DNA from: a virus
IMG/VR virus record: IMGVR_UViG_3300043449_001609
Coordinates: 4,864 to 68,863 of that record
DNA length: 64,000 nt
Strand: one strand, 5' to 3'
Shown here: positions 1,336 to 37,026 of the stretch, in pieces
How positions within the stretch are numbered: position 1 is the stretch's first letter
How the letters are laid out: each line of letters starts with the position of its first letter
The notes under the pieces: model-generated
Told to the model about the DNA's origin: nothing
The model's input: the letters and a program-made list of their open reading frames with translations, nothing else
The model's database searches: none
Program-made: the position numbers and the translations under genes

Positions 1336-3291
1336 ATGCAGAACTTCTTTGATGTAGTGCAGACACGAACCGGCGACGCCATTTATGGCGCGTCTGTGAG
1401 CGTGTACGACGCATCAGGAGCGTTGGCCACCATATACAGCGACAACGGCACTACCCAACAGGTAAACCCGCTCACCACGAACGAGGACGGAGAGTATTCG
1501 TTTTACGCTGCGAACGGGCGGTACTCCCTCACTATCACGGCTTCCGGGTACGACGCTCAGACGCGCGGCGGCATTGTGCTGTACGACGCCAGCGGTGCAC
1601 TGGAGTGGGTGTGGGCGGAAGACTACGGTGCTGTCGGTGACGGTACAACTGACGACACGGATGCGCTGAGAACTGCGCTTGCTGTGGGCGGCCACGTAGT
1701 CCTCCGCGATGGAGCGACGTACCTGATTTCTTCTGGGCTCACGTTCACCAACGGTTCCGGTCTGGTGTGCCCAAACGGGTACGCGTGGCTGAAAGCCAAG
1801 ACGGGCGCTGGCGGTTTCTTTGCTACCAACGTCGGAACGCCGAGAACGGGCACCGACAAGAACATGATCGTTTGCACCAGCGCGGATGATCTGACGCTGG
1901 ACGGCATAGGGTTCACCACCGACGGTGTCATGCAGGTGGTTCTGCACGGCGTGCGGGTAACGGCTGGCACGGAGACGTACGGTTTCTCGTTCCGCCGGTT
2001 GCGCTTCTCCAACTGGCCTGTTGGCGTAATGGTTGTGTGCAACTCGCTGGGCGCGGCGCCCAACAAGATCATTGATATTGAGTCTGCGAATGGTTGCTAC
2101 GTTACCAACGACAACACATATTGGTTTGGCGGCACCCCCCAGACAACTGTTGTGGAGGTGGACAACGACCGTTTGGGCGGCGTTGCTTCCAGCCCCGGTG
2201 TAATTCGCATCGCATCAGTAAAGAACATCCTGTTCTCTGGCGGGGCACTGTTAAGCTACGGGCAGCAGACGGACGTTGTGAACCTGACCGGCACATCGGG
2301 CAACAAGACCGCTGGCTGGGACATCGAGATTGGCACTGTGGACGGCGTGGGCGAAGTCGTTGACATTTTTGCCAACGCTAACAACGTGCGCGTCGGGCAC
2401 GTAAAAAACACGTACAACGACGCCCTCAAGCTCATTCACGGCGCGCAGGGAAACAAGATTACGCTCGGCGTCTCCGAGAACTCCGGGCGTTCCGTTGTCG
2501 TGCTGAGCGGGTCCAACTCTGCAGATCAAGACACCAAGGGCAACTCGGTCACTGTGGGAACCGTGCGTAACCCCGGAACATATGGGCTGGGTACGACTGC
2601 GCAGACACAGGTTGTCCTGTTCCTCCTCTCGACGGGAACGTACAAGCCGGTAAGTAACCACGTGCACATCCAGAACGTCATCGGTGATGGTGTCAATCTG
2701 GACTATGTCGTCCATGATGGCAGCGGTGCGTCAAACAACGACAACAGCATCATCATAGATCGCGCACAGGGATGGGCGATAGCCAGCACAGGCGGGTCCA
2801 CACCCGGGTCTGGCAGCAGCAACTATCAAGTTCAGTGCACGTCGCCGTGCTATACGATGATGGCGTTGTCTGGCGATCAGACGGGTATCGTTACTGCGAC
2901 GGACACCGTCGTCGACTGGGGCGAAACCATTGTTGATCTTGAAGGTCTTGCGGACCTCGTAAACAACAAGATCACCGTGAAGTGGCCCGGGCTGTATCAG
3001 TTTGAGGCATCTGCCCGTTTGAATGCGCAGGCGGTTGGGGCAACGGATCAGTGGCGGCTGACGCTGTACAAGGCGGGCACATCCCCTGTTGTGTCTGGAC
3101 GTGGGCGCATCCAGTTCACCGCCACCAACGATGAAACGATAACTGTGCGCGCCACCATATACGTGGACTACAACGACGTCGGTACGACGTTCGCTGATTT
3201 CTCTGTCAAGTTCTACCAGACCACCGGGGTGGATCGCACGGTGTCTGATGCCAACACCATGACGTACTTCTCCGCAACACGGATCAAGTGA
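1336..3291 (+). CDS. Tailspike/receptor-binding protein with probable beta-helix domain
   Basis: DYGAVGDGTTDDT motif that starts pectate-lyase-like beta-helices; N-terminal anchor shared with next gene. Confidence 0.75.
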   Translation: MQNFFDVVQTRTGDAIYGASVSVYDASGALATIYSDNGTTQQVNPLTTNEDGEYSFYAANGRYSLTITASGYDAQTRGGIVLYDASGALEWVWAEDYGAVGDGTTDDTDALRTALAVGGHVVLRDGATYLISSGLTFTNGSGLVCPNGYAWLKAKTGAGGFFATNVGTPRTGTDKNMIVCTSADDLTLDGIGFTTDGVMQVVLHGVRVTAGTETYGFSFRRLRFSNWPVGVMVVCNSLGAAPNKIIDIESANGCYVTNDNTYWFGGTPQTTVVEVDNDRLGGVASSPGVIRIASVKNILFSGGALLSYGQQTDVVNLTGTSGNKTAGWDIEIGTVDGVGEVVDIFANANNVRVGHVKNTYNDALKLIHGAQGNKITLGVSENSGRSVVVLSGSNSADQDTKGNSVTVGTVRNPGTYGLGTTAQTQVVLFLLSTGTYKPVSNHVHIQNVIGDGVNLDYVVHDGSGASNNDNSIIIDRAQGWAIASTGGSTPGSGSSNYQVQCTSPCYTMMALSGDQTGIVTATDTVVDWGETIVDLEGLADLVNNKITVKWPGLYQFEASARLNAQAVGATDQWRLTLYKAGTSPVVSGRGRIQFTATNDETITVRATIYVDYNDVGTTFADFSVKFYQTTGVDRTVSDANTMTYFSATRIK

Positions 3292-3292
3292 C

Positions 3293-4738
3293 GTGCAAAA
3301 CTTTTTTGATGTCGTACAGACCCGCACCGGCGACGCTATTTACGGCGCGTCCGTGAGTGTGCACAACTCAGGCGGATCGCTTGCTACGATATACAGCGAT
3401 GATGGGGTGACGCAGCAGACGAACCCCATGACAACGAACGCAGATGGGGAGTACTCCTTTTTCGCCGCGGACGGCAAGTACTCAATCACCATTACGGCTA
3501 CCGGGTACGACACGCAGGTACGCTCCGGAGTTGTCCTGTACGATGCTGCAGTGGCACAACCATTGTCGGCTACTGACGTCTCGTTTCCGACCCAAAACGA
3601 TGTTCTGGCCTATATTGACGGGCTATGGCGTAACAGCCCCGGCTGGAGCGGCGTCAGCTTGTTGCCGCTGAATAATACGTGGACTGGCACGAACACGTTC
3701 ACTGCCACTGTAACGGCAGATCAGTTGTATGCGTCGTTTGTAAAAATAGGCGGGAGCTACTGGATATACGGCGACGGTTCGTTTGCCGGCGATTATATGC
3801 GCTGGGAGTACTCATCGGATGGTGTGACTGGCGGCGCCGCGTTTATACCCAGTGCAGCAACAGCGGCATACAATTTTTACATAGACAGCACGCACGCTGT
3901 AGCCATTGAGGACACAGGAAACATCCTGCTGTACTCTGGGGCACCTACAATCTCCAGTGCATACCACGTCGTCCCAAAAGGCTACGCTGACGCCACGTAC
4001 GCGCCGAAAGGTGCTGCCACTGCCAGCGGAATTACTATGACCAGCGCGCGTCTTCTCGGGCGCACGACGGCAAGCACAGGAGCCATTGAGGAACTGACGG
4101 TTGGTGCTGGCTTGACGCTGAGTGCCGGCGCGCTCGGGCGCCCTGCATTGACGGGAGATGTCACGGCGTCGGCCGATAGCAACGCCACCACGATTGCCAA
4201 TAACGCCGTTACCACGGCAAAGATTAATGATACGGCGGTTACGACTGCCAAGATCACCGACGCCAATGTCACGAACGCCAAGCTGGCGAACATGGCGAAC
4301 AGCACCATCAAGGGTCGCACCACGTCTGGCACTGGCGTGCCAGAAGACATGACCGCGGCGCAGACCGCTGCCATTGTGCAGGGTGACGGCCTCACGGTCG
4401 ACCTATGCGGGTTCCGTGGCGTGCCGTTGAACTCTCAGAGCGCCGACTACGGAATAGTAGCGGCGGATTCAGGCAAGACAATTGCGCACCCCTCTACGGA
4501 CGCTAACAATCGGACGTTCACGATCCCTGCCAACGGCAGTGTTGCGTTCCCAATCGGAACTGCCCTGACGTTCTCCAACATGAGCGCCAATTCACTAACC
4601 ATCGCCATCACGACGGATACGATGTATCTGGCGGGGGCAGGCACTACGGGATCGCGCACATTGGCCCAGTATGGTGTAGCGACGGCGCTCAAGCTCACGT
4701 CCACAACGTGGCTTATCAGCGGCACGGGGTTGGCCTAA
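3293..4738 (+). CDS. Fibre protein with the same N-terminal anchor domain
   Basis: First ~85 aa near-identical to 1336 gene; VTTAKI repeats; C-terminal WLISGTGL. Confidence 0.75.
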   Translation: MQNFFDVVQTRTGDAIYGASVSVHNSGGSLATIYSDDGVTQQTNPMTTNADGEYSFFAADGKYSITITATGYDTQVRSGVVLYDAAVAQPLSATDVSFPTQNDVLAYIDGLWRNSPGWSGVSLLPLNNTWTGTNTFTATVTADQLYASFVKIGGSYWIYGDGSFAGDYMRWEYSSDGVTGGAAFIPSAATAAYNFYIDSTHAVAIEDTGNILLYSGAPTISSAYHVVPKGYADATYAPKGAATASGITMTSARLLGRTTASTGAIEELTVGAGLTLSAGALGRPALTGDVTASADSNATTIANNAVTTAKINDTAVTTAKITDANVTNAKLANMANSTIKGRTTSGTGVPEDMTAAQTAAIVQGDGLTVDLCGFRGVPLNSQSADYGIVAADSGKTIAHPSTDANNRTFTIPANGSVAFPIGTALTFSNMSANSLTIAITTDTMYLAGAGTTGSRTLAQYGVATALKLTSTTWLISGTGLA

Positions 4739-5496
4739 TGGGCGGTACGTTTCAGGCTTTGTTGATGGTGCGAGGCGAACAAGTGATTCCGTTCTCGGCT
4801 GTGTCGCTGTTGCTGCACATGAACGGAGCGGACGGCAGCACGACGTTCACTGACAGCAGCAGCTACGCCACGAACCCGAGCCACATATTTTCATGGCCGA
4901 AGATCTCCAGCACGTCGCCGAAGTTCGGCAACGGCTGTGGTTCTTTTGGGGTAACTGGCGCGGGCGACAACGGCTATTTAGACCGTAGCTACGTGTCGTA
5001 CCTCGACTTCAGTTCGGGGAATTTCACGGTCCAGTATTGGTTTCGCTCGACCAATTCGGCGCAGGTTTCTCGGCGCATGATTTCGTTCTGTAAGGCAGGG
5101 CCTTCTGCGGCCGCCGACTTCCAGTACACCATCGCTATCAACAGCGGCGGGACGCTCTATGCCAGCGTGTACTCGGGGTCTACAGGGTACACCGTGGGAT
5201 CAGCGTTATGGTCGACGTATGCCGATGGCAACTGGCACTTCCTCGAACTCTGTCGGATAGGTAATGATTTTTTCATGCTTATAGATGGTTCTGTGATCGG
5301 CTCAATAACGCAGAGTATTACGTTGAACACCAACGCCGCGTGGCTACTAGAGATCGGCGCGATTCAGCCCTCGGTTAGCCAGCCGTACAGCGGATACTTT
5401 GACGACATGCGACTAATCAAAGGGTATGGCTTGAAGTACACCAGCGTACCGACAGCCCAGTTTTCCGATAGCTCCGTGAACCCAACAGGCGGCTGA
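4738..5496 (+). CDS. LamG/concanavalin-A-like lectin-domain virion protein
   Basis: SLLLHMNGADGSTTFTDSS, FTVQYW, WHFL, GYFDDMRL; TAATG coupling gives start 4738. Confidence 0.75.
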   Translation: MGGTFQALLMVRGEQVIPFSAVSLLLHMNGADGSTTFTDSSSYATNPSHIFSWPKISSTSPKFGNGCGSFGVTGAGDNGYLDRSYVSYLDFSSGNFTVQYWFRSTNSAQVSRRMISFCKAGPSAAADFQYTIAINSGGTLYASVYSGSTGYTVGSALWSTYADGNWHFLELCRIGNDFFMLIDGSVIGSITQSITLNTNAAWLLEIGAIQPSVSQPYSGYFDDMRLIKGYGLKYTSVPTAQFSDSSVNPTGG

Positions 5497-28992: not shown

Positions 28993-29021
28993 ATTAAAAC
29001 ATAACAATTCGTTTCAATCAA
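28993..29021 (-). promoter_or_regulatory. Sigma70-type promoter (extended -10)
   Basis: TTGATT-N17-TTTAAT with TGn. Confidence 0.55.
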
Positions 29022-30552
29022 GTAGTTTTCGATACATTTCGACAATCTGGGTGTGAACGTCGATGTTGTTGTCCAGCATGCTGTACACGTGTCGCTCAAC
29101 AGGGGCGCCTTCCAACCGCACGACAGTGCAAGGAAACTTCTGTCCGGCACGGTGCGGTCGGGCGTTGGCTTGCGCGTAAATCTCCAGCGAGCTGGTCGGC
29201 CCCCACCAGACGATGGTGTCGGCTGCGGTGAGCGTCACGCCGTGTGCGGCTGACTGAGGCTGGATAATCAGGATACGCGGGTCTGGGTCGTCTTGAAAAG
29301 CCCTGAACAGCCGCGTGCGCTCGCCGGCGGACACCGCCCCGTTGATGACCCCCACGGTGTAGCCGTCCTCCTTGAGCCGCGACTGCAGCGCCTGTATGGC
29401 GTGCGTGTACATGACGAACACCAGCACCTTGCGATCTGTCTCGCTGATGACCTCCTCCAGCACGCGGTAGCGGTTGCTGATGTCGTAGTCGAGGATTGCC
29501 CCGGACTCGGTGTAACTCGCCCCTGACGCGATCTGGAGCAGCCTGTTGAGCTTCACGGCGGCGTTGGCAGCGGTGATCTGCTCCCCGGCCGCGCTGATGA
29601 GCATGTGCTTGCGGAACTCGTCGTAGTAGTGCTTCTGCTGCTGCGTCATCGGCACGTGGCGCGTGACGTACGTTATCTCCGGCAGGTCAAGGCACTCCTT
29701 CTTGGTGAAGCGGATCGCCGGCTGCAGCGCAGCGTGCACGATGTCCTTGGCGTTGGGGCGCGGGATGTACTTGAAGTTGGTGACCTTCTGCATCACCTGT
29801 TCGCGGAAGCCGTTGAAGAACCGCGGCACGCCGTTGGGGTTCACGAGCTTGGCCAGTCCGTAGGCATCCACAGGCGACTGCGCCGCCGGCGTGCCGGTCA
29901 TCATCCACAGCCACGTATTGGGCTTGACGAGCTTGGCCATCGACTTCCACCGGCGCGTGCTGGTGGTCTTCACGGCGTTGGCTTCATCTGCGATGACAAG
30001 GTCGAACCCGGCAAGCATCAGGTACTCCATCATGATGGGCACCCCGTCGTAGTTGATGATGACGAACTCAGCGTTGCCTTGGATCACCTTGCGGCGCTGC
30101 TCGGCGGAGCCGTGTGCGATGTCCACGCGCCGGTGCATGAGGGTCTTGAACAGGTCGCTCCGCCACGCGTTGTCCATGACGGACACAGGACACACGATCA
30201 GCACGCGCTTGATGAGCCCCTTCTCCATGAGGTAGTCCGCAGCCCACGCCGCCGACATTGTTTTCCCGGTTCCCTGTTCCCCGAAGTTGAACGCGCGCGA
30301 GTGCATGGTGAGGAACGCAGCGACCGTCTTCTGGTGCTCAAAGGGCTTGTACATGCCGGGCCAGTTGTAGTCCCGCATGATGGGAGATGGCGCTGACTTG
30401 ACACCGAGGTTCTGCAGCACGCGCATCTCGTCTACGCCCCAGTGCACCAGCACGCGACCGTCCGGCAGCAGTCGACTCTTGGGTATGGCTGCCAGAATGT
30501 GTGCAGGCCGCTTCACGCGCACGGCAACGGCGCGGTTCTCGATTACTTCCAT
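29014..30552 (-). CDS. SNF2-family helicase
   Basis: EQGTGKT, IADEA, MTGTP, HGVTLT, QANARPHRAGQ. Confidence 0.9.
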   Translation of the reverse strand: MEVIENRAVAVRVKRPAHILAAIPKSRLLPDGRVLVHWGVDEMRVLQNLGVKSAPSPIMRDYNWPGMYKPFEHQKTVAAFLTMHSRAFNFGEQGTGKTMSAAWAADYLMEKGLIKRVLIVCPVSVMDNAWRSDLFKTLMHRRVDIAHGSAEQRRKVIQGNAEFVIINYDGVPIMMEYLMLAGFDLVIADEANAVKTTSTRRWKSMAKLVKPNTWLWMMTGTPAAQSPVDAYGLAKLVNPNGVPRFFNGFREQVMQKVTNFKYIPRPNAKDIVHAALQPAIRFTKKECLDLPEITYVTRHVPMTQQQKHYYDEFRKHMLISAAGEQITAANAAVKLNRLLQIASGASYTESGAILDYDISNRYRVLEEVISETDRKVLVFVMYTHAIQALQSRLKEDGYTVGVINGAVSAGERTRLFRAFQDDPDPRILIIQPQSAAHGVTLTAADTIVWWGPTSSLEIYAQANARPHRAGQKFPCTVVRLEGAPVERHVYSMLDNNIDVHTQIVEMYRKLLD

Positions 30553-30557
30553 AAATT

Positions 30558-31067
30558 TTACATCCCCGATACGAGTTGGTCTAAGCGCAACGGTGCTGCG
30601 CACTCTGCATTAAGCTCCGGCTTCAGCACGTGAATATATATGGACTCTAGGCGGTTTAATTTTTCTGGCGGGCACGGGACGTAAGCAAAACGGTCAAATG
30701 TTTTATCTTTGTGCTGCGAGAGTCGGCTATAGACATTCACGGATTGTCCAACGTAGACAACTCGGTTGTCACGTATCAAGAAGTACACCCCAGACACACG
30801 AGACATACTGTAGCTGGCCGCTACAATGTGCTCCTCCGACAACAAAAGTTTATCGTTCAGTTCCGGGTGCTGGGCTTGCAGCTCCGCGCACAGCCTTGCC
30901 ATTCCGAGTCGTTGCTCCAGAGCCTGCACTTCTTCGGCCAGACGGAAGCGCTGGCTCATCGCGTATTCTCGTTCCGCGTGCAGCTTGTCCAGTCTCGCTC
31001 GCCGTGTAGCCACCCCTTTTGCAGCGCTGGCTCTGCGCTGGTCCGGTGTCCTGTCGTGCAGTCCCAT
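30558..31067 (-). CDS. GIY-YIG nuclease-domain protein
   Basis: SGVYFL...VYVGQS...RLSQH...LESIYI...PELN; more AT-rich than neighbours. Confidence 0.75.
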   Translation of the reverse strand: MGLHDRTPDQRRASAAKGVATRRARLDKLHAEREYAMSQRFRLAEEVQALEQRLGMARLCAELQAQHPELNDKLLLSEEHIVAASYSMSRVSGVYFLIRDNRVVYVGQSVNVYSRLSQHKDKTFDRFAYVPCPPEKLNRLESIYIHVLKPELNAECAAPLRLDQLVSGM

Positions 31068-32290: not shown

Positions 32291-32554
32291 TCATTTCTCC
32301 ATATCACATGCCGTTTCCGCTATCGACGCAGTCAGCCCAGCAATATCAATAAAGCGAGCGATTGCATTTAGTGTTTTTTCCTGCTCGGCTAATTTTTCTT
32401 CGCACGCGCCCAATTTCGCTTTCGTACGCGCAACGTCTAGGTTCGCTCGCTGCAGTTGTATCATAAGACTAGAAATCTCCGCGGCGTGATCTGAGCACAC
32501 ACCAGCCAATTTCAGGTACTCATCTTCTAAGTTAGTCCACTGTATGTCGTTCAT
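32291..32554 (-). CDS. Coiled-coil hypothetical protein
   Basis: MNDIQWTNLE start overlapping the pol stop; AT-richer. Confidence 0.5.
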   Translation of the reverse strand: MNDIQWTNLEDEYLKLAGVCSDHAAEISSLMIQLQRANLDVARTKAKLGACEEKLAEQEKTLNAIARFIDIAGLTASIAETACDMEK

Positions 32555-35421
32555 TTCATTTCTCCATAGCACGTACCCGTGCTGCCTGCGGCCCACACGA
32601 CCAGCTGCGGCCACCACGCCGGCGGCGTGCGCATGATGCGCAGCACCGTGTCCAGCAGCGCGTCAGCGTCTTCCTCCGGTGCCACGTACATCAGCTCGTC
32701 ATGCACCGACAACACCGGGCGTTGCTTGGTTGCCTTGTAGATGTCGAACGCCATGTCAGCCACCACGTCGCGCGCCAGCGCCTGCACGCAGTTGTGCACT
32801 ATGAACGGGCCTTCTTTGCCTTTGACGACAAACCGTTGTCGGGGGCCACAGTTGACGATGTCGTATACCGACCGCTGACATTCGGCGTTGTCCGCAGCTG
32901 TGTTTTGCTCCATCCGTGTGAAATTCGATAGTACAGCGTCGAGCGGCTTATTCCAGTCTGTGCGCTCAACTGCGGCACGTCCACCATGCGAATTGTATTT
33001 CGTTTGTTCATGGTGTTTACCCGACGAGAAACCCACCGGCAGTTCTTCTTTGTGTAGTCTCCTTCGTTGTTTTTTCGATCCAAGTCCATCCCCGGCTGGT
33101 ACGAGCTGCCCATGTCCGCCCAGAAATTCTCGAAAGATGCTTGCCATCGAACACACACTGTTATTCCACGCGCTCCGTAGTTTTTCCACGCCCTGTGCGA
33201 TGGCAGCTGGCAGCGGTCCAACATAGCCCTCCACACTGCGTATGCCGGGTGCTTTGACATGCCGTGTGTCGTTACCTTCTGTCTCAATCTGTCCCAGCTG
33301 GAACACCCGCAATTGGGCACTCTCCCCGCGCGCATATCTTTTTTGACGTCGCAGCCAAGTTTCTCGCAGCGATTTCCACATGCGCACTGGAACTCCCAAC
33401 TCCATGTCTTTCCCGTGGACCGTGTCGGTCGCACCGCTGTCAACTTCCCGAATGTTTGGCCGGTAAGGTCTTTGAACCTCCAGTGCAGCTTTCCATCCTT
33501 CATCCGTTAGTACCTCATGATCCGGTGTCATAAACACACCATCCACGGTAACACAGGTTTGGACTGATTTGAATACTTTACCGGCATGCCGCACGAACTC
33601 GACACCATCGTGCACTCTGTCATCCAAGCGCACGTCTTGTATCGGCACCCAACCGCGCTCACATAGAACCAACGTGCCTTCGGCTATGCAGTTCTCGTCG
33701 ATCTTCCCAGCATAAATACGTGCAGTGTGGCGCCCCTCGCCGTAGAACCACTCCGTCTTGCCCGCCTCGTCCATCTGCTTGCGCAGCTCCGGGTAGCGGA
33801 TATACCGCCCGCTCGGGAGCATGATGCCCTCTGCACAGGTGCGTGTCAGTCCCCACGGATCAATCGGCACGATGTCGCCGGACTCGATAGCCGGCAGCAG
33901 CGAGTGACACTTTTTCCACCCCTGCACAATCTCGGGGTACATCTCGCGCCACGCGTTTTTGATGTTCTCGGACTCCGCTTCGGTCAGCGTGACACCGCCC
34001 ATCGTCTTGGCCACGCTGCGGAATGTCTCGGCGCCCGAACCGAAGCCCAAGCCCAGCTGCGCCACCTTGCCCATCTGACGCTGGTCTTTCGACACGTCCT
34101 TCACAGGCACAGCGTATAGCGACGCCGCAAACTGCCGATACAGGTCGGCTTCTGCTGGGTCTTTCTTGAACAGGTCCATGCTGCTCGGCACTTTCCACAG
34201 GAAGTGGTTCACGCGCAGCTCGATGCCGGACAAGTCAGCCACGACCAGCTTGTGGCCGGGCGGTGCGTTGATACTGCACCGCAGGGCGTCGGAGATTTTT
34301 GGTGCTTTGGGGTTCACGCGCGGCAGGTTCTGCAGGTTCAGGCCGCCGATGCCGGCGCCCCAGCGCCCCGTCGTGGTTGCGCCACAGTAGTTGAGCGGGA
34401 CAGGCAGCTTGCCCTTCATCGTCTTGCCGACGTTGATGAAAGACTCCAGCCGCGTTTCGATAATGGTGGACTTCACATCCAGACGCGCGCACACCGCGGC
34501 GGCGACAAGTTCGTTCTCGTGTTCCTGCAGGGCAAGAAACTCCTGATCGGTCTTTGAGAACGCCAGCGTCTGCTGCCCCGTGGTGGGGCTGATCTTGGTG
34601 GGCGGTGTCACGCCCTCTTGTGCCATAACGGCGGCCAGCTTGACGTTGGACATCAGTGTGGCCTTGGTGCGCTCAATGGCTGCGTCCATGACGCCGCTCA
34701 CGACAGCGCGATGGATGGCTTCTTCCTCGCCAAACTGCCGCTTCAAGTCAAGCATTTCCAGATCGAGCACGGATGCCAGTTTCTGCAGCGCCCGCACCTT
34801 GCGTGCTTGCTCCTTGATGAGTGCGCTCTCCAGCATGCGCTTGTCGAGTATCAGCTTCGGGTCGATGAGCATGCGGATGGTGGAGTCTATCTGCCACATC
34901 TCGCGGGAGTTGTAGTGCGGCAACAGCTTCTTGAACAGTGCGGCGCATTGCTCGGTGTCTGCTTCGTTGTATATCTTCATCTGCTCACGTTCAGCAGCAG
35001 TGAACTCGGCCAACTTCCTGCCCTGCGTCTTGAGCAGGACGGTGTTGTCCTTCTTCCCCAGCTCGTAGTGTTCCACCAGCTTGGCCAGTGAGTTGCCTAC
35101 GGTCAGGTTGTGGATGGGCTTGGCCATCGCCAGCGTACACCCCCACGCTTTCGGCTTCACACCCAGACGCCATGCGAAGATCATGGCGTCGAACCCGGAC
35201 ATGTTGTGCGCCACGAACAGGGCGTCCGAGAAGTCGGTCCTCTCCAGCAGCTCGCGTATTTTCCACTCGCCAAACACAACCTTGGTGGGCGCGTCACCCA
35301 CCTTGAGTGACAGCGAAATCAACTCCGTCTCCTTGTGCAGACAGTAGTCAATCGGACTCATCTTCGACAGCGAATGTGTCTGGCTCCAGAACGTCTCCAA
35401 GTCTCCCACTATTACTTTCAT
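32551..35421 (-). CDS. Family A DNA polymerase with 3'-5' exonuclease, intein-containing precursor
   Basis: Exo DLET, AHNMSGFD, YNEAD; motif A DLSGIELR, motif B RQMGKVAQLGLGFG, motif C VHDE. Confidence 0.95.
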   Translation of the reverse strand: MKVIVGDLETFWSQTHSLSKMSPIDYCLHKETELISLSLKVGDAPTKVVFGEWKIRELLERTDFSDALFVAHNMSGFDAMIFAWRLGVKPKAWGCTLAMAKPIHNLTVGNSLAKLVEHYELGKKDNTVLLKTQGRKLAEFTAAEREQMKIYNEADTEQCAALFKKLLPHYNSREMWQIDSTIRMLIDPKLILDKRMLESALIKEQARKVRALQKLASVLDLEMLDLKRQFGEEEAIHRAVVSGVMDAAIERTKATLMSNVKLAAVMAQEGVTPPTKISPTTGQQTLAFSKTDQEFLALQEHENELVAAAVCARLDVKSTIIETRLESFINVGKTMKGKLPVPLNYCGATTTGRWGAGIGGLNLQNLPRVNPKAPKISDALRCSINAPPGHKLVVADLSGIELRVNHFLWKVPSSMDLFKKDPAEADLYRQFAASLYAVPVKDVSKDQRQMGKVAQLGLGFGSGAETFRSVAKTMGGVTLTEAESENIKNAWREMYPEIVQGWKKCHSLLPAIESGDIVPIDPWGLTRTCAEGIMLPSGRYIRYPELRKQMDEAGKTEWFYGEGRHTARIYAGKIDENCIAEGTLVLCERGWVPIQDVRLDDRVHDGVEFVRHAGKVFKSVQTCVTVDGVFMTPDHEVLTDEGWKAALEVQRPYRPNIREVDSGATDTVHGKDMELGVPVRMWKSLRETWLRRQKRYARGESAQLRVFQLGQIETEGNDTRHVKAPGIRSVEGYVGPLPAAIAQGVEKLRSAWNNSVCSMASIFREFLGGHGQLVPAGDGLGSKKQRRRLHKEELPVGFSSGKHHEQTKYNSHGGRAAVERTDWNKPLDAVLSNFTRMEQNTAADNAECQRSVYDIVNCGPRQRFVVKGKEGPFIVHNCVQALARDVVADMAFDIYKATKQRPVLSVHDELMYVAPEEDADALLDTVLRIMRTPPAWWPQLVVWAAGSTGTCYGEMK
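32791..33690 (-). mobile_element. Intein (300 aa, residues 578-877 of the polymerase precursor)
   Basis: Block A CIAEGTLV, block B TPDHEVLT, block F VYDI, block G IVHN followed by Cys; removal restores GKIDEN/CVQALARD. Confidence 0.95.
32799..33503 (-). CDS. HNH-family (His-Me finger) endonuclease nested in the +1 frame of the intein
   Basis: DLTGQTFGKLT, CACG, CGC, THGMS, WRAMLDRC, YGARGITVCVRW, LDRKNNEGDYTKKNCRW, C-terminal HTH-like; GAGGT 8 nt before ATG. Confidence 0.85.
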   Translation of the reverse strand: MKDGKLHWRFKDLTGQTFGKLTAVRPTRSTGKTWSWEFQCACGNRCEKLGCDVKKDMRAGRVPNCGCSSWDRLRQKVTTHGMSKHPAYAVWRAMLDRCQLPSHRAWKNYGARGITVCVRWQASFENFWADMGSSYQPGMDLDRKNNEGDYTKKNCRWVSRRVNTMNKRNTIRMVDVPQLSAQTGISRSTLYYRISHGWSKTQLRTTPNVSGRYTTSSTVAPDNGLSSKAKKARS

Positions 35422-35424
35422 AGG

Positions 35425-35622
35425 TCACGCCCACGTATTGTTGTGGATGACGTTGAAGATACACATGGTGGACACGTCGTACCGCTTCGCAAGCATGGCT
35501 TGTGTGTAGCGCCCGGTTTCGTACAGCACGCGGATGCGTGCGGCCTTGGCGTATGTGAGTTTGGCGCGGCCGTTACGTTCGCCGGCGTTGTTGGAAACTT
35601 TCTTCGCAGTTGACTTCTTCAC
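35425..35622 (-). CDS. Small helix-turn-helix protein
   Basis: GERNGRAKLT...TQAMLAKRYDVS...VIHNNTW, like HTH tails of HNH proteins. Confidence 0.65.
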   Translation of the reverse strand: MKKSTAKKVSNNAGERNGRAKLTYAKAARIRVLYETGRYTQAMLAKRYDVSTMCIFNVIHNNTWA

Positions 35623-36065
35623 TTGGACTCTCCTTTCACAATGTCATGTAGATCAAACTTGGTGTTCTCCCGTGCACGGAGTGCGGGGAGTATTGCTGCC
35701 TGCTCGTCCAGCAGCTCGTCAAAGTCCCCCATGTAGGGGGGCCGGTTGTCGTTGAACAGCTCGGTGCCGTCAACATCCAGTATCATCATCAGGCACGCGC
35801 AGGCAGCTGCCAGCGGGTGTACGCCGTCCGATGTCTTATCCTTCCCACACCACCACGCAAAGATGTGTCGCATGGCCGCGCCAAAGTACACGCTGGCGCT
35901 GATCTTCTCCTCCTCCCAGTTGTATGGTTGATATTTAAACCCACCGTCCGCAAACGCCATGGCGATCTTCGCCAGTGCACGGACAGGTATGAGGTGAAGC
36001 GGCACTTTGTTCATGCCGCCCACGCGCGTCTTTGGGTTGCTGTCAGGTGCCGGCATTGCTGTCAT
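35619..36065 (-). CDS. dATP/dGTP diphosphohydrolase-like protein (DUF5664)
   Basis: NPK...KVPLHLIP...GGFKYQPYNW...AAMRH...W. Confidence 0.7.
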   Translation of the reverse strand: MTAMPAPDSNPKTRVGGMNKVPLHLIPVRALAKIAMAFADGGFKYQPYNWEEEKISASVYFGAAMRHIFAWWCGKDKTSDGVHPLAAACACLMMILDVDGTELFNDNRPPYMGDFDELLDEQAAILPALRARENTKFDLHDIVKGESK

Positions 36066-36252
36066 CCCGTAGAAACTCAATGGTCGGTGCTTCTTCCCGC
36101 AGTGCGTAGTATTCAATCTGTGCTTTGGCCGAGTTAATCATCTTGCCCGCGATGTTGGCAAGTTCTGCAGCCTCGTGGTGCTGCATCTTCCCCTGCTTCA
36201 GTAGTTTGAACACGTCGCTTAATTCCGTCCGTAACTCACTTGCCGTTTTCAT
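36043..36252 (-). CDS. Hypothetical protein
   Basis: MKTASELRTEL...ELANIAGKMINSAK; overlaps neighbours. Confidence 0.6.
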   Translation of the reverse strand: MKTASELRTELSDVFKLLKQGKMQHHEAAELANIAGKMINSAKAQIEYYALREEAPTIEFLRDDSNAGT

Positions 36253-36637
36253 TTGCATGCCTCTTAATCTGAAGTTGAAGTCGCTTAATATCAGCCAAAA
36301 CTTGCGGCACGTCTACTGTGGATAGCCCCGTGTTGTTTGCCACAAGTCGTTTGGCGTATGTATTACTGATGGTCTTGCTTGCGTTGCCGCTGTTTCTCCT
36401 CCTCATGGTTGATAAAACTTTCCTGCCTTTGGTTGACGTCCTGTATTTTTTTATGGCCGCTTTATGCTTTCCGGTTCTGCTGCGCCACTCGCGCGCAATG
36501 TTTCTTGCGCACCCCCTGCACGGGCGACCAGATGCGCTGCGACAGTCGCTCCACACACCGAACCACGACACAGGCAGTACGTTATAACAGCGTGGGCAAT
36601 ACTTAAACCCCGAACACGCTATCTGACATGCCAGCAT
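36236..36637 (-). CDS. Basic Zn-finger-like hypothetical protein
   Basis: KYCPRC...CRGC; K/R-rich; start uncertain. Confidence 0.45.
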   Translation of the reverse strand: MLACQIACSGFKYCPRCYNVLPVSWFGVWSDCRSASGRPCRGCARNIAREWRSRTGKHKAAIKKYRTSTKGRKVLSTMRRRNSGNASKTISNTYAKRLVANNTGLSTVDVPQVLADIKRLQLQIKRHANENGK

Positions 36638-36959
36638 CGCCGTCCCTCCGCAATTTAAGTTCCCACTGTGCGTACGCACACTTCAGCCAGACCATCACAC
36701 CGGCGGCGTTCGCCTCACGCATGACGCACGACACACCACCCGCTGTTTTTATCCGACGCAGTTGGTTCTCCTGCAGCGCCGTGGGTTGATTATCCCCCGC
36801 TTTACACTCAATTGCAAAGAACATCCCGCGGTAGCAGCCGACGATGTCCGGCACGCCTGATGTGCCGTAACCTCCGGTAGCGGGGAAAAAGTAATACACC
36901 CCGTGCGCCTTGAGCTCGTCGGTGATGGTTTTCTTGACTTTCTTTTCTGGTGTACTCAT
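36603..36959 (-). CDS. VRR-NUC nuclease (Holliday junction resolvase-like)
   Basis: TPEKKVK, GVPDI, AIECKA, PTALQ. Confidence 0.85.
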   Translation of the reverse strand: MSTPEKKVKKTITDELKAHGVYYFFPATGGYGTSGVPDIVGCYRGMFFAIECKAGDNQPTALQENQLRRIKTAGGVSCVMREANAAGVMVWLKCAYAQWELKLRRDGDAGMSDSVFGV

Positions 36960-37026
36960 CGACGGTACAACCACAAAGCGAGCATCAGGACCGAGCACGA
37001 GTACCACATCACAACTTCAATATCTG

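Follow-up and report, generated by a model that had tools for sequence, protein, structure and literature searches.

Out-of-frame nuclease genes in inteins

Canonical inteins carry their homing nuclease in frame with the splicing domain. Here we describe an intein that shares its DNA with a putative homing nuclease gene in another frame; it interrupts the family A DNA polymerase of a freshwater metagenome virus (IMG/VR record IMGVR_UViG_3300043449_001609, a complete virus of 68.9 kb), and an intact 234-aa open reading frame (ORF) runs through it in the +1 frame. The stretch analyzed, referred to below as the window, comprises 64,000 nucleotides (positions 4,864 to 68,863 of that record), and coordinates are given within it. 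Nuclease genes out of frame with their inteins have precedents. Antisense LAGLIDADG genes were described in inteins by Gorbalenya 1998 and Gogarten 2002 (as cited in bioRxiv 10.1101/2025.01.02.630785), and the available text of the citing preprint (Gosselin, Arsenault & Gogarten) reports actinobacteriophage inteins with antisense Vsr-like genes and with same-strand, frame-3 endonuclease VII-like genes.

The inteins of Gosselin et al., as presented in the available text, resemble the element in the window in keeping the splicing blocks in the host frame, and in both, blocks B and F enclose an intact nuclease ORF of a different frame. They also share an in-frame middle without recognizable structure, free-standing relatives of the nuclease, and a proposed origin through invasion by a free-standing gene. 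They differ from it in hosts and in the type of nuclease. The cases presented there are from actinobacteriophages, and the only same-strand type is endonuclease VII-like and in frame 3, the rest being antisense LAGLIDADG or Vsr-like genes; the window family, in contrast, encodes a putative PacI/I-HmuI-like His-Me finger protein without the first His, is always in the +1 frame (frame 2), and occupies, in phages and prophages, family A polymerases and an SNF2 helicase, on contigs labeled as several bacterial phyla.

Other described systems share parts of this arrangement. For APSE-1 (L001, NC_000935.1), RefSeq lists a 141-aa 'HNH endonuclease', P46, that overlaps P45; it belongs to the same element family, has the frame and position of the +1 gene of the window, with 46% identity in the +1 frame, and differs in an insertion register 3 codons upstream of the window's. 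Our literature search returned no text on the P45/P46 overlap, although that overlap may be mentioned in the 1999 APSE-1 paper, which lay outside the search. Fractured genes (Dassa et al. 2009, PMC2677866) likewise have a separate nuclease gene at the endonuclease site of an intein, a layout found in one of our loci (L020; see below), and the nucleases in the accessible part of that paper are GIY-YIG and Vsr-like, unlike the window's. Because the host frame of the window is open, unlike that of the fractured genes, the intein is contiguous and should splice in cis. The ShiLan domain (Arsenault et al. 2025, PMC11855218), from the portion of the article available, is also a hidden out-of-frame HNH in an open host ORF, that of a phage methylase; it lacks a splicing domain and remains part of the host protein, whereas the window insert is flanked by Hint ends. 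Out-of-frame intein nucleases are therefore already precedented. A literature search that extended neither to the 1999 APSE-1 paper nor to supplements returned no description of the present family, with a His-less, HNH-like +1 gene in inteins of family A polymerases and helicases, an occurrence well outside actinophages, measured stop avoidance and a split sibling.

Two open frames within the polymerase gene

The host gene, the intein and the overprinted gene are arranged as follows, with structure predictions from AlphaFold2 (AF2) scored by a predicted value of the local distance difference test (pLDDT).

32551..35421, minus strand: family A DNA polymerase precursor ORF, the host gene, 956 aa, stop included (ORF list)
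33691..35421, minus strand: N-extein, polymerase residues 1-579, ending ...GKIDEN (alignment with 23 intein-bearing and 29 intein-less relatives)
32791..33690, minus strand: class 1 intein, 300 aa, in the polymerase frame (splicing motifs, PDB profile matches, Foldseek)
32551..32790, minus strand: C-extein, starting CVQALARD..., with a VHDE motif, stop included (ORF list and alignments of relatives)
33451..33690, minus strand: Hint N-terminal part, intein residues 1-80, with blocks A and B and an N4-like strand (AF2 pLDDT 90-95)
32884..33441, minus strand: frame-0 spacer, intein residues 84-269, open but unstructured, its protein not conserved (pLDDT, codon variability)
32791..32880, minus strand: Hint C-terminal part, intein residues 271-300, with blocks F and G, ending ...IVHN (AF2 pLDDT 91-93)
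32799..33503, minus strand: overprinted +1 gene, a 234-aa HNH-like (His-Me finger) putative homing endonuclease (phrog_374, AF2, relatives)
33512..33516, minus strand: GAGGT, Shine-Dalgarno-like, 8 nt before the +1 ATG (33503..33501), in the His-Glu-Val codons of block B (read from the sequence; putative function)

The polymerase ORF matches Pfam DNA_pol_A (E=1.5e-20) in two stretches, one on each side of the 300-residue insert, and when residues 580-879 are taken out the remainder aligns contiguously with intein-less polymerases. The N-terminal junction reads GKIDEN/CIAEGT and the C-terminal one IVHN/CVQALARD; block B is TPDHEVLT, and block F, VYDIVNCGPRQRFVV, contains VYDI. The 234-aa ORF lies wholly within the intein, and the distance between the two starts (35421-33503 = 1918 = 3x639+1) places it in the +1 frame; its TAG, at 32801..32799, falls within the block G codons TTC ATA GTG. 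A first-pass annotation made from the letters alone had described a 900-nt intein with all splicing blocks (CIAEGT, TPDH, VYDI and HN/C), an intact 234-aa ORF running from 33503 to 32799, and its GAGGT, 8-nt spacer and ATG inside block B and TAG inside block G, and all of these are found at exactly those positions. The third frame across the same overlap has 9 stops.

The two-frame observation is real. That annotation had raised the possibility that compensating indels produce the double reading, and we looked for them in a second study (runs X2 and X3), in contigs of a strain with 95-99% identity. These contigs cover 32547-33106 and 33315-33741 and differ from the window in substitutions only, with no insertions, deletions or joints over those positions; five of the listed substitutions lie inside the intein, too few for a comparison of frames. 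A megablast search of the polymerase against GenBank phages gave no match, and thus no near-identical phage. A scan of 32400-34000 against Rfam for a group I intron or other RNA family had no match at E<=1.

A Hint domain at the intein ends and a disordered spacer

The two ends of the intein are recognizable as a Hint domain. In a search of the PDB with a frame-0 profile of 20 relatives, all 11 matches at E<=0.01 are inteins, with NEQ068 (3e-6) and the Mtu RecA mini-intein (2e-5) scoring best; residues 52-87 of the intein align with residues 67-102 of the latter (E=3e-4). With the frame-0 model, the top Foldseek matches are all inteins or Hint proteins (gp41-1, Msm DnaB and Mtu RecA, with a probability of 1.0 and E from 2e-3 to 1e-2). 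C1, T55, H58 and N300 are invariant in the 20 aligned elements, and H299 is present in at least 90%; the first C-extein residue is Cys in 24/24 aligned sequences, and L016 and L017 have Ser-Asn at the intein end. Pfam and NCBIfam models identify no domain in the window's frame-0 intein, Pfam (Hint models included) matches 0/20 members, and the N-terminal part has a weak match to phrog_93 (E=0.011).

The residues between the ends appear to be disordered. In the AF2 model built on the alignment of relatives, pLDDT is below 50 at intein residues 84-176 and 193-269. A phmmer search with the frame-0 spacer alone finds 177 representatives at E<=1e-3, mostly proteins of ~900 aa matched at about residues 650-850, and among the best 150 of these 177, both intein halves (scored by sequence patterns) flank the match in 99, one half in 46, and neither in 5. 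Since the spacer relatives sit inside large intein-bearing proteins, the spacer is not an independent domain family, and what similarity it has is an echo of the nuclease frame. REFLGGHG, for example, a conserved string of frame 0, is the nuclease motif FENFWADMG in shifted reading.

AF2 models of both frames show the intein and the nuclease ordered in complementary places. Profile, Foldseek and AF2 evidence agree with the first-pass proposal that Hint similarity is confined to the frame-0 ends, and the middle, with its low pLDDT and no Pfam match, has no folded domain, as had also been proposed. The description of that middle as a passive linker holds in that it is unstructured and without protein-level selection (see below), and has to be amended for the ~10 codons after block B (intein residues 73-83, nuclease residues 11-21), which are structured in both frames.

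Selection on the two frames

The pattern of substitution changes along the element. We measured codon-position variability as differences per pair among 20 elements; L018, whose block B is cut by the contig end, was left out of this analysis and of those of start codons and stop avoidance, and the GenBank loci L001-L003 were left out of alignments A1 and A2. Variability at the two intein ends peaks at frame-0 position 3 (0.68 and 0.64). In the middle (intein residues 86-268) it peaks instead at frame-0 position 1 (0.60), where +1 codons have their wobble position, and is lowest at position 3 (0.35). Amino-acid identity among 20 relatives is 52% for the core of the +1 protein versus 27% for the frame-0 middle, and the Hint C-terminal part has 62% identity among relatives.

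The host frame is nonetheless kept open by selection, a conclusion supported by stop codons in relatives and in shuffled sequences. There are no host-frame stops in any of the elements (0 in 23/23), and the +1 ORF is also intact in 23/23. When the +1 ORF of the window was shuffled among synonymous codons 1000 times, the host frame acquired 6.3 stops on average, and 0/1000 shuffles were stop-free; for the 23 elements the means range from 3.1 to 13.7 stops (overall mean 7.0), with a stop-free fraction of <=0.028 per element. The equivalent frame of six free-standing homologues has 6-17 stops, and the third frame of the overprinted genes has 7-25. The initial impressions that the double openness exceeds chance, that selection maintains the intein frame, and that the +1 ORF would prove uninterrupted in relatives were borne out by these comparisons.

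The manner in which stops are avoided is simple. For a host-frame stop to arise, T must be the last letter of a +1 codon and the next +1 codon must begin with AA, AG or GA; this risky combination is used in 0 of 32-71 opportunities per element in all 23 elements, with T at the third position of +1 codons elsewhere having a frequency of 0.08-0.24. Avoidance of T need not change the nuclease, because NNT and NNC are always synonymous.

Features of the +1 protein

The predicted +1 protein has three parts, in the order in which they would be translated.

33324..33473, minus strand: N-terminal small beta domain, +1 residues 11-60 (pLDDT 93-96)
32994..33260, minus strand: nuclease core, +1 residues 82-170 (PacI structural match, I-HmuI profile match)
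32889..32979, minus strand: C-terminal helix-turn-helix (HTH)-like part, +1 residues 175-205 (helices 175-183, 187-195 and 200-203)

The product matches phrog_374, 'HNH endonuclease' (E=6.7e-54), phrog_3377 (1.3e-44), and, counted beyond phrog_374, four further nuclease PHROGs at E<=2.6e-20. Its AF2 model has a mean pLDDT of 84. In it the small beta domain is followed by a mostly helical domain that includes two strands and a helix, and then by the helical C-terminal part; confidence is low for the last 24 residues, which overlap blocks F and G. There are 26 invariant columns in an alignment of 25 nuclease sequences, free-standing homologues included, and among these are C40, C42, C65, H80, C98, C117, R143, Y150, N154, C155, W157 and N166. 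The N-terminal domain has weak matches to small beta-barrels (Z<=5.1); with C40, C42 and C65 invariant, and C67 present in at least 90%, this domain probably holds a zinc site.

The best PDB nuclease match of the +1 product, by sequence (E=0.46) and by profile (1u3e; E=0.042), is I-HmuI. This phage homing nuclease is modular and ends in an HTH. The motif D-R-K-N...N-C-R-W...N of the +1 family aligns with D-H-K-D...N-L-R-W...N of I-HmuI, such that the invariant N166 falls on the metal-ligand Asn of the I-HmuI helix, and the position of the metal-ligand Asp is also kept. The corresponding core of the model has strands at 139-143 and 155-159 and a helix at 160-165. Among 48,161 chains, the best structural match is PacI (3m7k_A; Z 6.1, root-mean-square deviation 2.5, 74 residues aligned over model residues 82-170). 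PacI and I-HmuI have a beta-beta-alpha core that the +1 protein may share, with a similarity that is weak in both comparisons. Evidence for the HTH-like part is also weak, with Pfam HTH_8 and HTH_10 matches at E ~0.1 and a profile alignment with the LCoR HTH at E=0.45. Features specific to the family are an Arg in place of the His, a Cys-rich domain at the N-terminus, and the motifs H-G-M-S, Y-G-x-R-G-I and F-E-N-F-W-x-D-M-G.

The invariant Y150 lies in the loop between the two strands. PacI has no catalytic His, and a Tyr in the loop between strands takes over its role (group 20 in the available part of Jablonska et al. 2017, PMC5714182). Y150 may be the structural equivalent of the PacI Tyr, and by analogy this residue offers a lead, not proof, that the +1 family can be an active nuclease.

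Candidate start signals of the +1 gene

The same GAGGT at the same spacing is found in phage SFCi1 and in L006, L007, L008, L009 and L025. All of the elements (23/23) have an ATG, GTG or TTG upstream of a conserved D-L-T-G motif, and in 22/23 a candidate start lies either 5-6 or 11 codons before it. A Shine-Dalgarno 4-mer is present 4-14 nt before the candidate start in 16/23 elements, compared with 13.7% at arbitrary positions. For the window, SFCi1 and L007-L009, the class-1 ATG exists only because an Asp or Asn codon of frame 0 ends in T, although T-ending +1 codons are rare overall. Because start codons are kept, Shine-Dalgarno motifs are in excess, and the ATG depends on such a T, internal initiation is favoured, and as read from these signals the +1 gene most likely starts at the ATG at 33503 behind GAGGT.

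Relatives and distribution

The +1 product has 41-63% identity with ORFs of the same position and frame in other phages. The best tblastn matches in GenBank phages lie inside polymerase genes, in Shewanella phage SFCi1 (48%), APSE-1 to APSE-7 (46%) and four Caulobacter phages (41%), and in all of these, GB2A among the last group, the match lies in the +1 frame of an uninterrupted polymerase coding sequence (CDS). The host polymerases of these relatives are only ~30% identical to the window's. The nuclease ORF is unannotated in SFCi1 and GB2A; in APSE-1 the open +1 stretch has 222 codons (polymerase CDS 2008-2674), with a GTG 6 codons before D-I-T-G and near the start of the N-terminal domain, and the annotated start of P46 is probably too far downstream.

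Among 27 IMG/VR loci with the nuclease, it is overprinted in 20, between split halves in one, and free-standing in six. In bacterial and archaeal contigs (one genome per species), 27 of the best 80 loci are overprinted, and none is in the +2 frame; these 27 were scored by an open host frame across the nuclease, not all are confirmed as polymerases, and block B and G motifs, sought as regular expressions, are present in 23/27. The contigs carry labels of Burkholderiales, Alicyclobacillus, Paenibacillus, Clostridia, Chloroflexota, Spirochaetes, Verrucomicrobia, Novosphingobium, Arsenophonus and others. A search of longer proteins for in-frame fusions of intein and nuclease gave two, P0001 and P0002, with no clean in-frame form, and is weak evidence.

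Some family members are unusual in composition. The 1244-codon polymerase ORF of L022:545-4276 has, besides the overprinted intein, a second and separate Hint domain (Pfam Hint_2, residues 390-433), and its nuclease is shorter (180 codons) and without the C-terminal HTH part. P0001, a free-standing protein of 582 aa with no intein, has three tandem modules of nuclease-like core plus HTH after two Cys-rich N-terminal modules; as judged from this module order, the nuclease family also expands through internal duplication.

Indications of mobility, and a split form

The nearest polymerases found, with N-exteins 30-60% identical, are all intein-less at the site (29/29). Their empty site reads GK..EN-CVQALARD in 8 and has I, V or L at the Cys position in 21. 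Within the motif GK..EN..QA..RD there are two insertion registers 3 codons apart, ...EN/C.QA (as in the window) and ...GK./CEN..QA, and register is clustered on the nuclease tree without forming one clade. In L025 and L026, the same intein and +1 nuclease interrupt an SNF2 helicase. The window has an orthologue of this helicase (29014..30603, minus strand; 55% and 49% identity) that carries no intein. The empty site there lies near 29524..29529 and reads LLQIA/SGASYT, versus LLQIS/intein/CGAAYT in the occupied genes; this intein-less orthologue therefore offers the element family a second target in the phage lineage. The patchy distribution, the two registers and the second host gene are indirect indications that the element is mobile. 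Differential intein loss has been reported for APSE polymerases (Rouil et al. 2020, in the part of that paper available).

One relative has a fractured polymerase. In L020:1447-4423, the N-terminal polymerase and intein parts (polN+IntN) occupy 1447..3501, the nuclease 3483..4121 with a GTG start, and the C-terminal parts (IntC+polC) begin at an ATG at 4118, with the stop of the nuclease and the start of IntC overlapping as ATGA; the three ORFs are in three frames, and there are 17 stops in the former host frame. On the nuclease tree, which was built without L018 (fragment), L024 (duplicate of L023) and L032 (fragment), the L020 nuclease falls within a supported clade of polymerase-intein nucleases. 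The window polymerase ORF is continuous, not broken into parts that carry IntN and IntC.

Favored explanation and alternatives

We consider it quite probable that the element is a class 1 polymerase intein with Hint ends, a disordered open tether, and a separate +1 homing nuclease gene on the same DNA. The Hint splicing domain would be formed from the two intein ends only (~80 and ~30 residues), and the ~186 codons between them would encode a stop-free disordered tether; because the tether is at the canonical endonuclease-insertion point, the precursor could still splice in cis and yield a functional polymerase. The +1 product would be the homing endonuclease of the element, with its Cys-rich beta domain, His-Me finger core and C-terminal HTH, and it would be translated independently from the ATG at 33503 behind the block B GAGGT, such that its own start would make nuclease dose independent of polymerase synthesis and splicing. 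At the ends, selection acts on the Hint domain, and between them on the +1 product; the host frame is kept open just by avoiding T-ending +1 codons before AA, AG and GA. We infer splicing of the precursor, independent translation of the +1 gene, and DNA cleavage and homing by its product from sequence features, and likewise an origin through capture of a free-standing nuclease gene or invasion of a mini-intein.

Several observations weigh against this explanation. The first, general-base His of the HNH motif is replaced by Arg143, which is invariant in all 25 sequences, free-standing relatives included; Pfam and NCBIfam nuclease models do not match the +1 product; Foldseek with the +1 model returns nothing at E<=0.001; and the PacI match is middling, as a Z below 8 can reflect a common arrangement. 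The middling PacI match and the empty Foldseek search mean that nuclease activity of the modeled protein is not assured. The first-pass assignment of the +1 product to the HNH family is accordingly retained in part: the protein is folded, conserved and a member of PHROG nuclease families, but is atypical, with an invariant Arg for the first His, no Pfam HNH match and PacI as its best structural match. On the side of expression, 7/23 elements have no clear Shine-Dalgarno 4-mer, and the conservation of GAGGT cannot be credited to translation alone because it lies within conserved block B codons. A scan for an internal promoter gave two promoter-like sites versus 0.6 expected, neither of them near the +1 start, and RNA structure around the start is not above chance (fold z-score -0.26). 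None of the sequencing runs found to contain the sequence is an RNA run. Broken relatives also exist, with one stop in the frame-0 spacer of L084:3311-4300, a duplicated nuclease N-terminal module and frame changes in L082:3000-4600, and a helicase/IntN that runs from frame 0 into the nuclease frame in P0002; these may be dying prophage copies or assembly errors, and they indicate that the contiguous arrangement does decay or break. Finally, 11/25 inner branches of the nuclease tree are open, and a tree so poorly resolved does not separate one capture from several or show in which direction genes passed between intein-borne and free-standing states.

Other explanations were weighed on the same evidence. 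We regard it as unlikely that the +1 protein is expressed as something other than a nuclease, such as a DNA-binding factor, with a zinc-binding beta domain and an HTH, that has another role for the phage or the intein. The invariant Arg at the catalytic His, the HTH-like C-terminus and the lack of a match to curated nuclease models are consistent with such a factor, but the metal-ligand Asp and Asn are kept, the loop Y150 is invariant, PacI (from the part of Jablonska et al. cited above) is active with a loop Tyr in place of the His, and the positions of the gene, inside inteins, between split halves and scattered as free-standing copies, are typical of homing endonuclease genes. That the +1 ORF is an open but non-functional remnant, and the intein essentially a mini-intein that has a long spacer and passes by vertical descent, would also account for the missing first His and for the broken relatives L082, L084 and P0002. 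It is quite improbable given the coding periodicity of the +1 frame, the 52% identity retained across elements whose polymerases share only ~30%, the 26 invariant residues common to free-standing homologues and the intact ORF in every one of the 23 elements; furthermore, the 29 nearest polymerases found lack the intein and distant ones carry it, as does a helicase, a pattern that points to recent mobility.

Still lower is the probability we give to a programmed +1 ribosomal frameshift just after block B, which would produce a fusion of N-extein, Hint N-terminal part and nuclease ending at the block G TAG. The +1 ORF does open directly behind block B in every element, and APSE-1 and several others have only a GTG and weak Shine-Dalgarno-like motifs. 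However, the +1 frame of every element has a stop only 1-13 codons upstream of its candidate start, leaving very little room for a shift, and no shared slippery motif was noticed in the start regions, although no dedicated search was made. Moreover, the start codon is at one of two fixed positions in all elements but one, the window, SFCi1 and L007-L009 have the T-dependent ATG, and in L020 the nuclease stands apart as an ordinary gene that begins at a GTG. An artifact, in the form of compensating frameshifts in a canonical in-frame HNH intein, or an ORF-bearing group I intron has next to no probability. The unusual layout alone speaks for either, and both are already contradicted by the recurrence of the same frame relation in three GenBank phage groups, 20 IMG/VR loci and 27 genome loci, by the indel-free contigs of the second study, by the lack of an Rfam match, by the Hint fold at the ends, and by an openness of the host frame beyond chance.

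Neighboring genes

Directly upstream of the polymerase, the gene at 35619..36116 (minus strand) matches phrog_2252 (E=9e-35) and the dATP/dGTP pyrophosphohydrolase family phrog_801 (E=2.7e-13). Two small nuclease-like genes lie upstream of the polymerase module (36236..36679 and 36603..37007, both minus strand); one matches phrog_2340, 'endonuclease' (E=7.5e-5), and the other phrog_93, 'endonuclease' (E=1.5e-17), with a weaker match to a Holliday-junction-resolvase family. Matches of the polymerase to DpoZ models are very weak (34 and 26 bits, with cut-offs of 350 and 500), and scores so far below the cut-offs give no support for a modified-base genome.

Implications

Because textbook inteins carry the nuclease in frame, gene callers and catalogues list elements of this kind as endonuclease-less or odd mini-inteins and miss the nuclease gene. 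The out-of-frame layout is more than a curiosity of a few actinophages, as it recurs in polymerases of phages and prophages across many labeled phyla, and the 177 spacer relatives fit a total of at least 177 protein clusters, counted at 50% identity. The occurrence of contiguous, split, helicase-borne and free-standing states within one family provides tests of how inteins gain nucleases and how split inteins originate, and the element is a clean natural case of gene overlap, the sole constraint on one of the two frames being that it stay open. The nuclease family, in which Arg takes the place of the catalytic His and a loop Tyr is invariant, would be a putative type of His-Me finger enzyme.

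The balance of the evidence leans, with some reserve, toward a wider interpretation, in which these elements form a large, old and still mobile dual-coding family, a cis-splicing intein and a free-standing-type nuclease gene time-sharing the same DNA. Such a family may be the missing stable intermediate that links invaded mini-inteins with split inteins (the state of L020) and possibly with canonical in-frame inteins. If so, each of the two proteins would be ordered where the other is disordered, and the dose of nuclease would be set by the start signal of its own gene and not by synthesis of the host protein.

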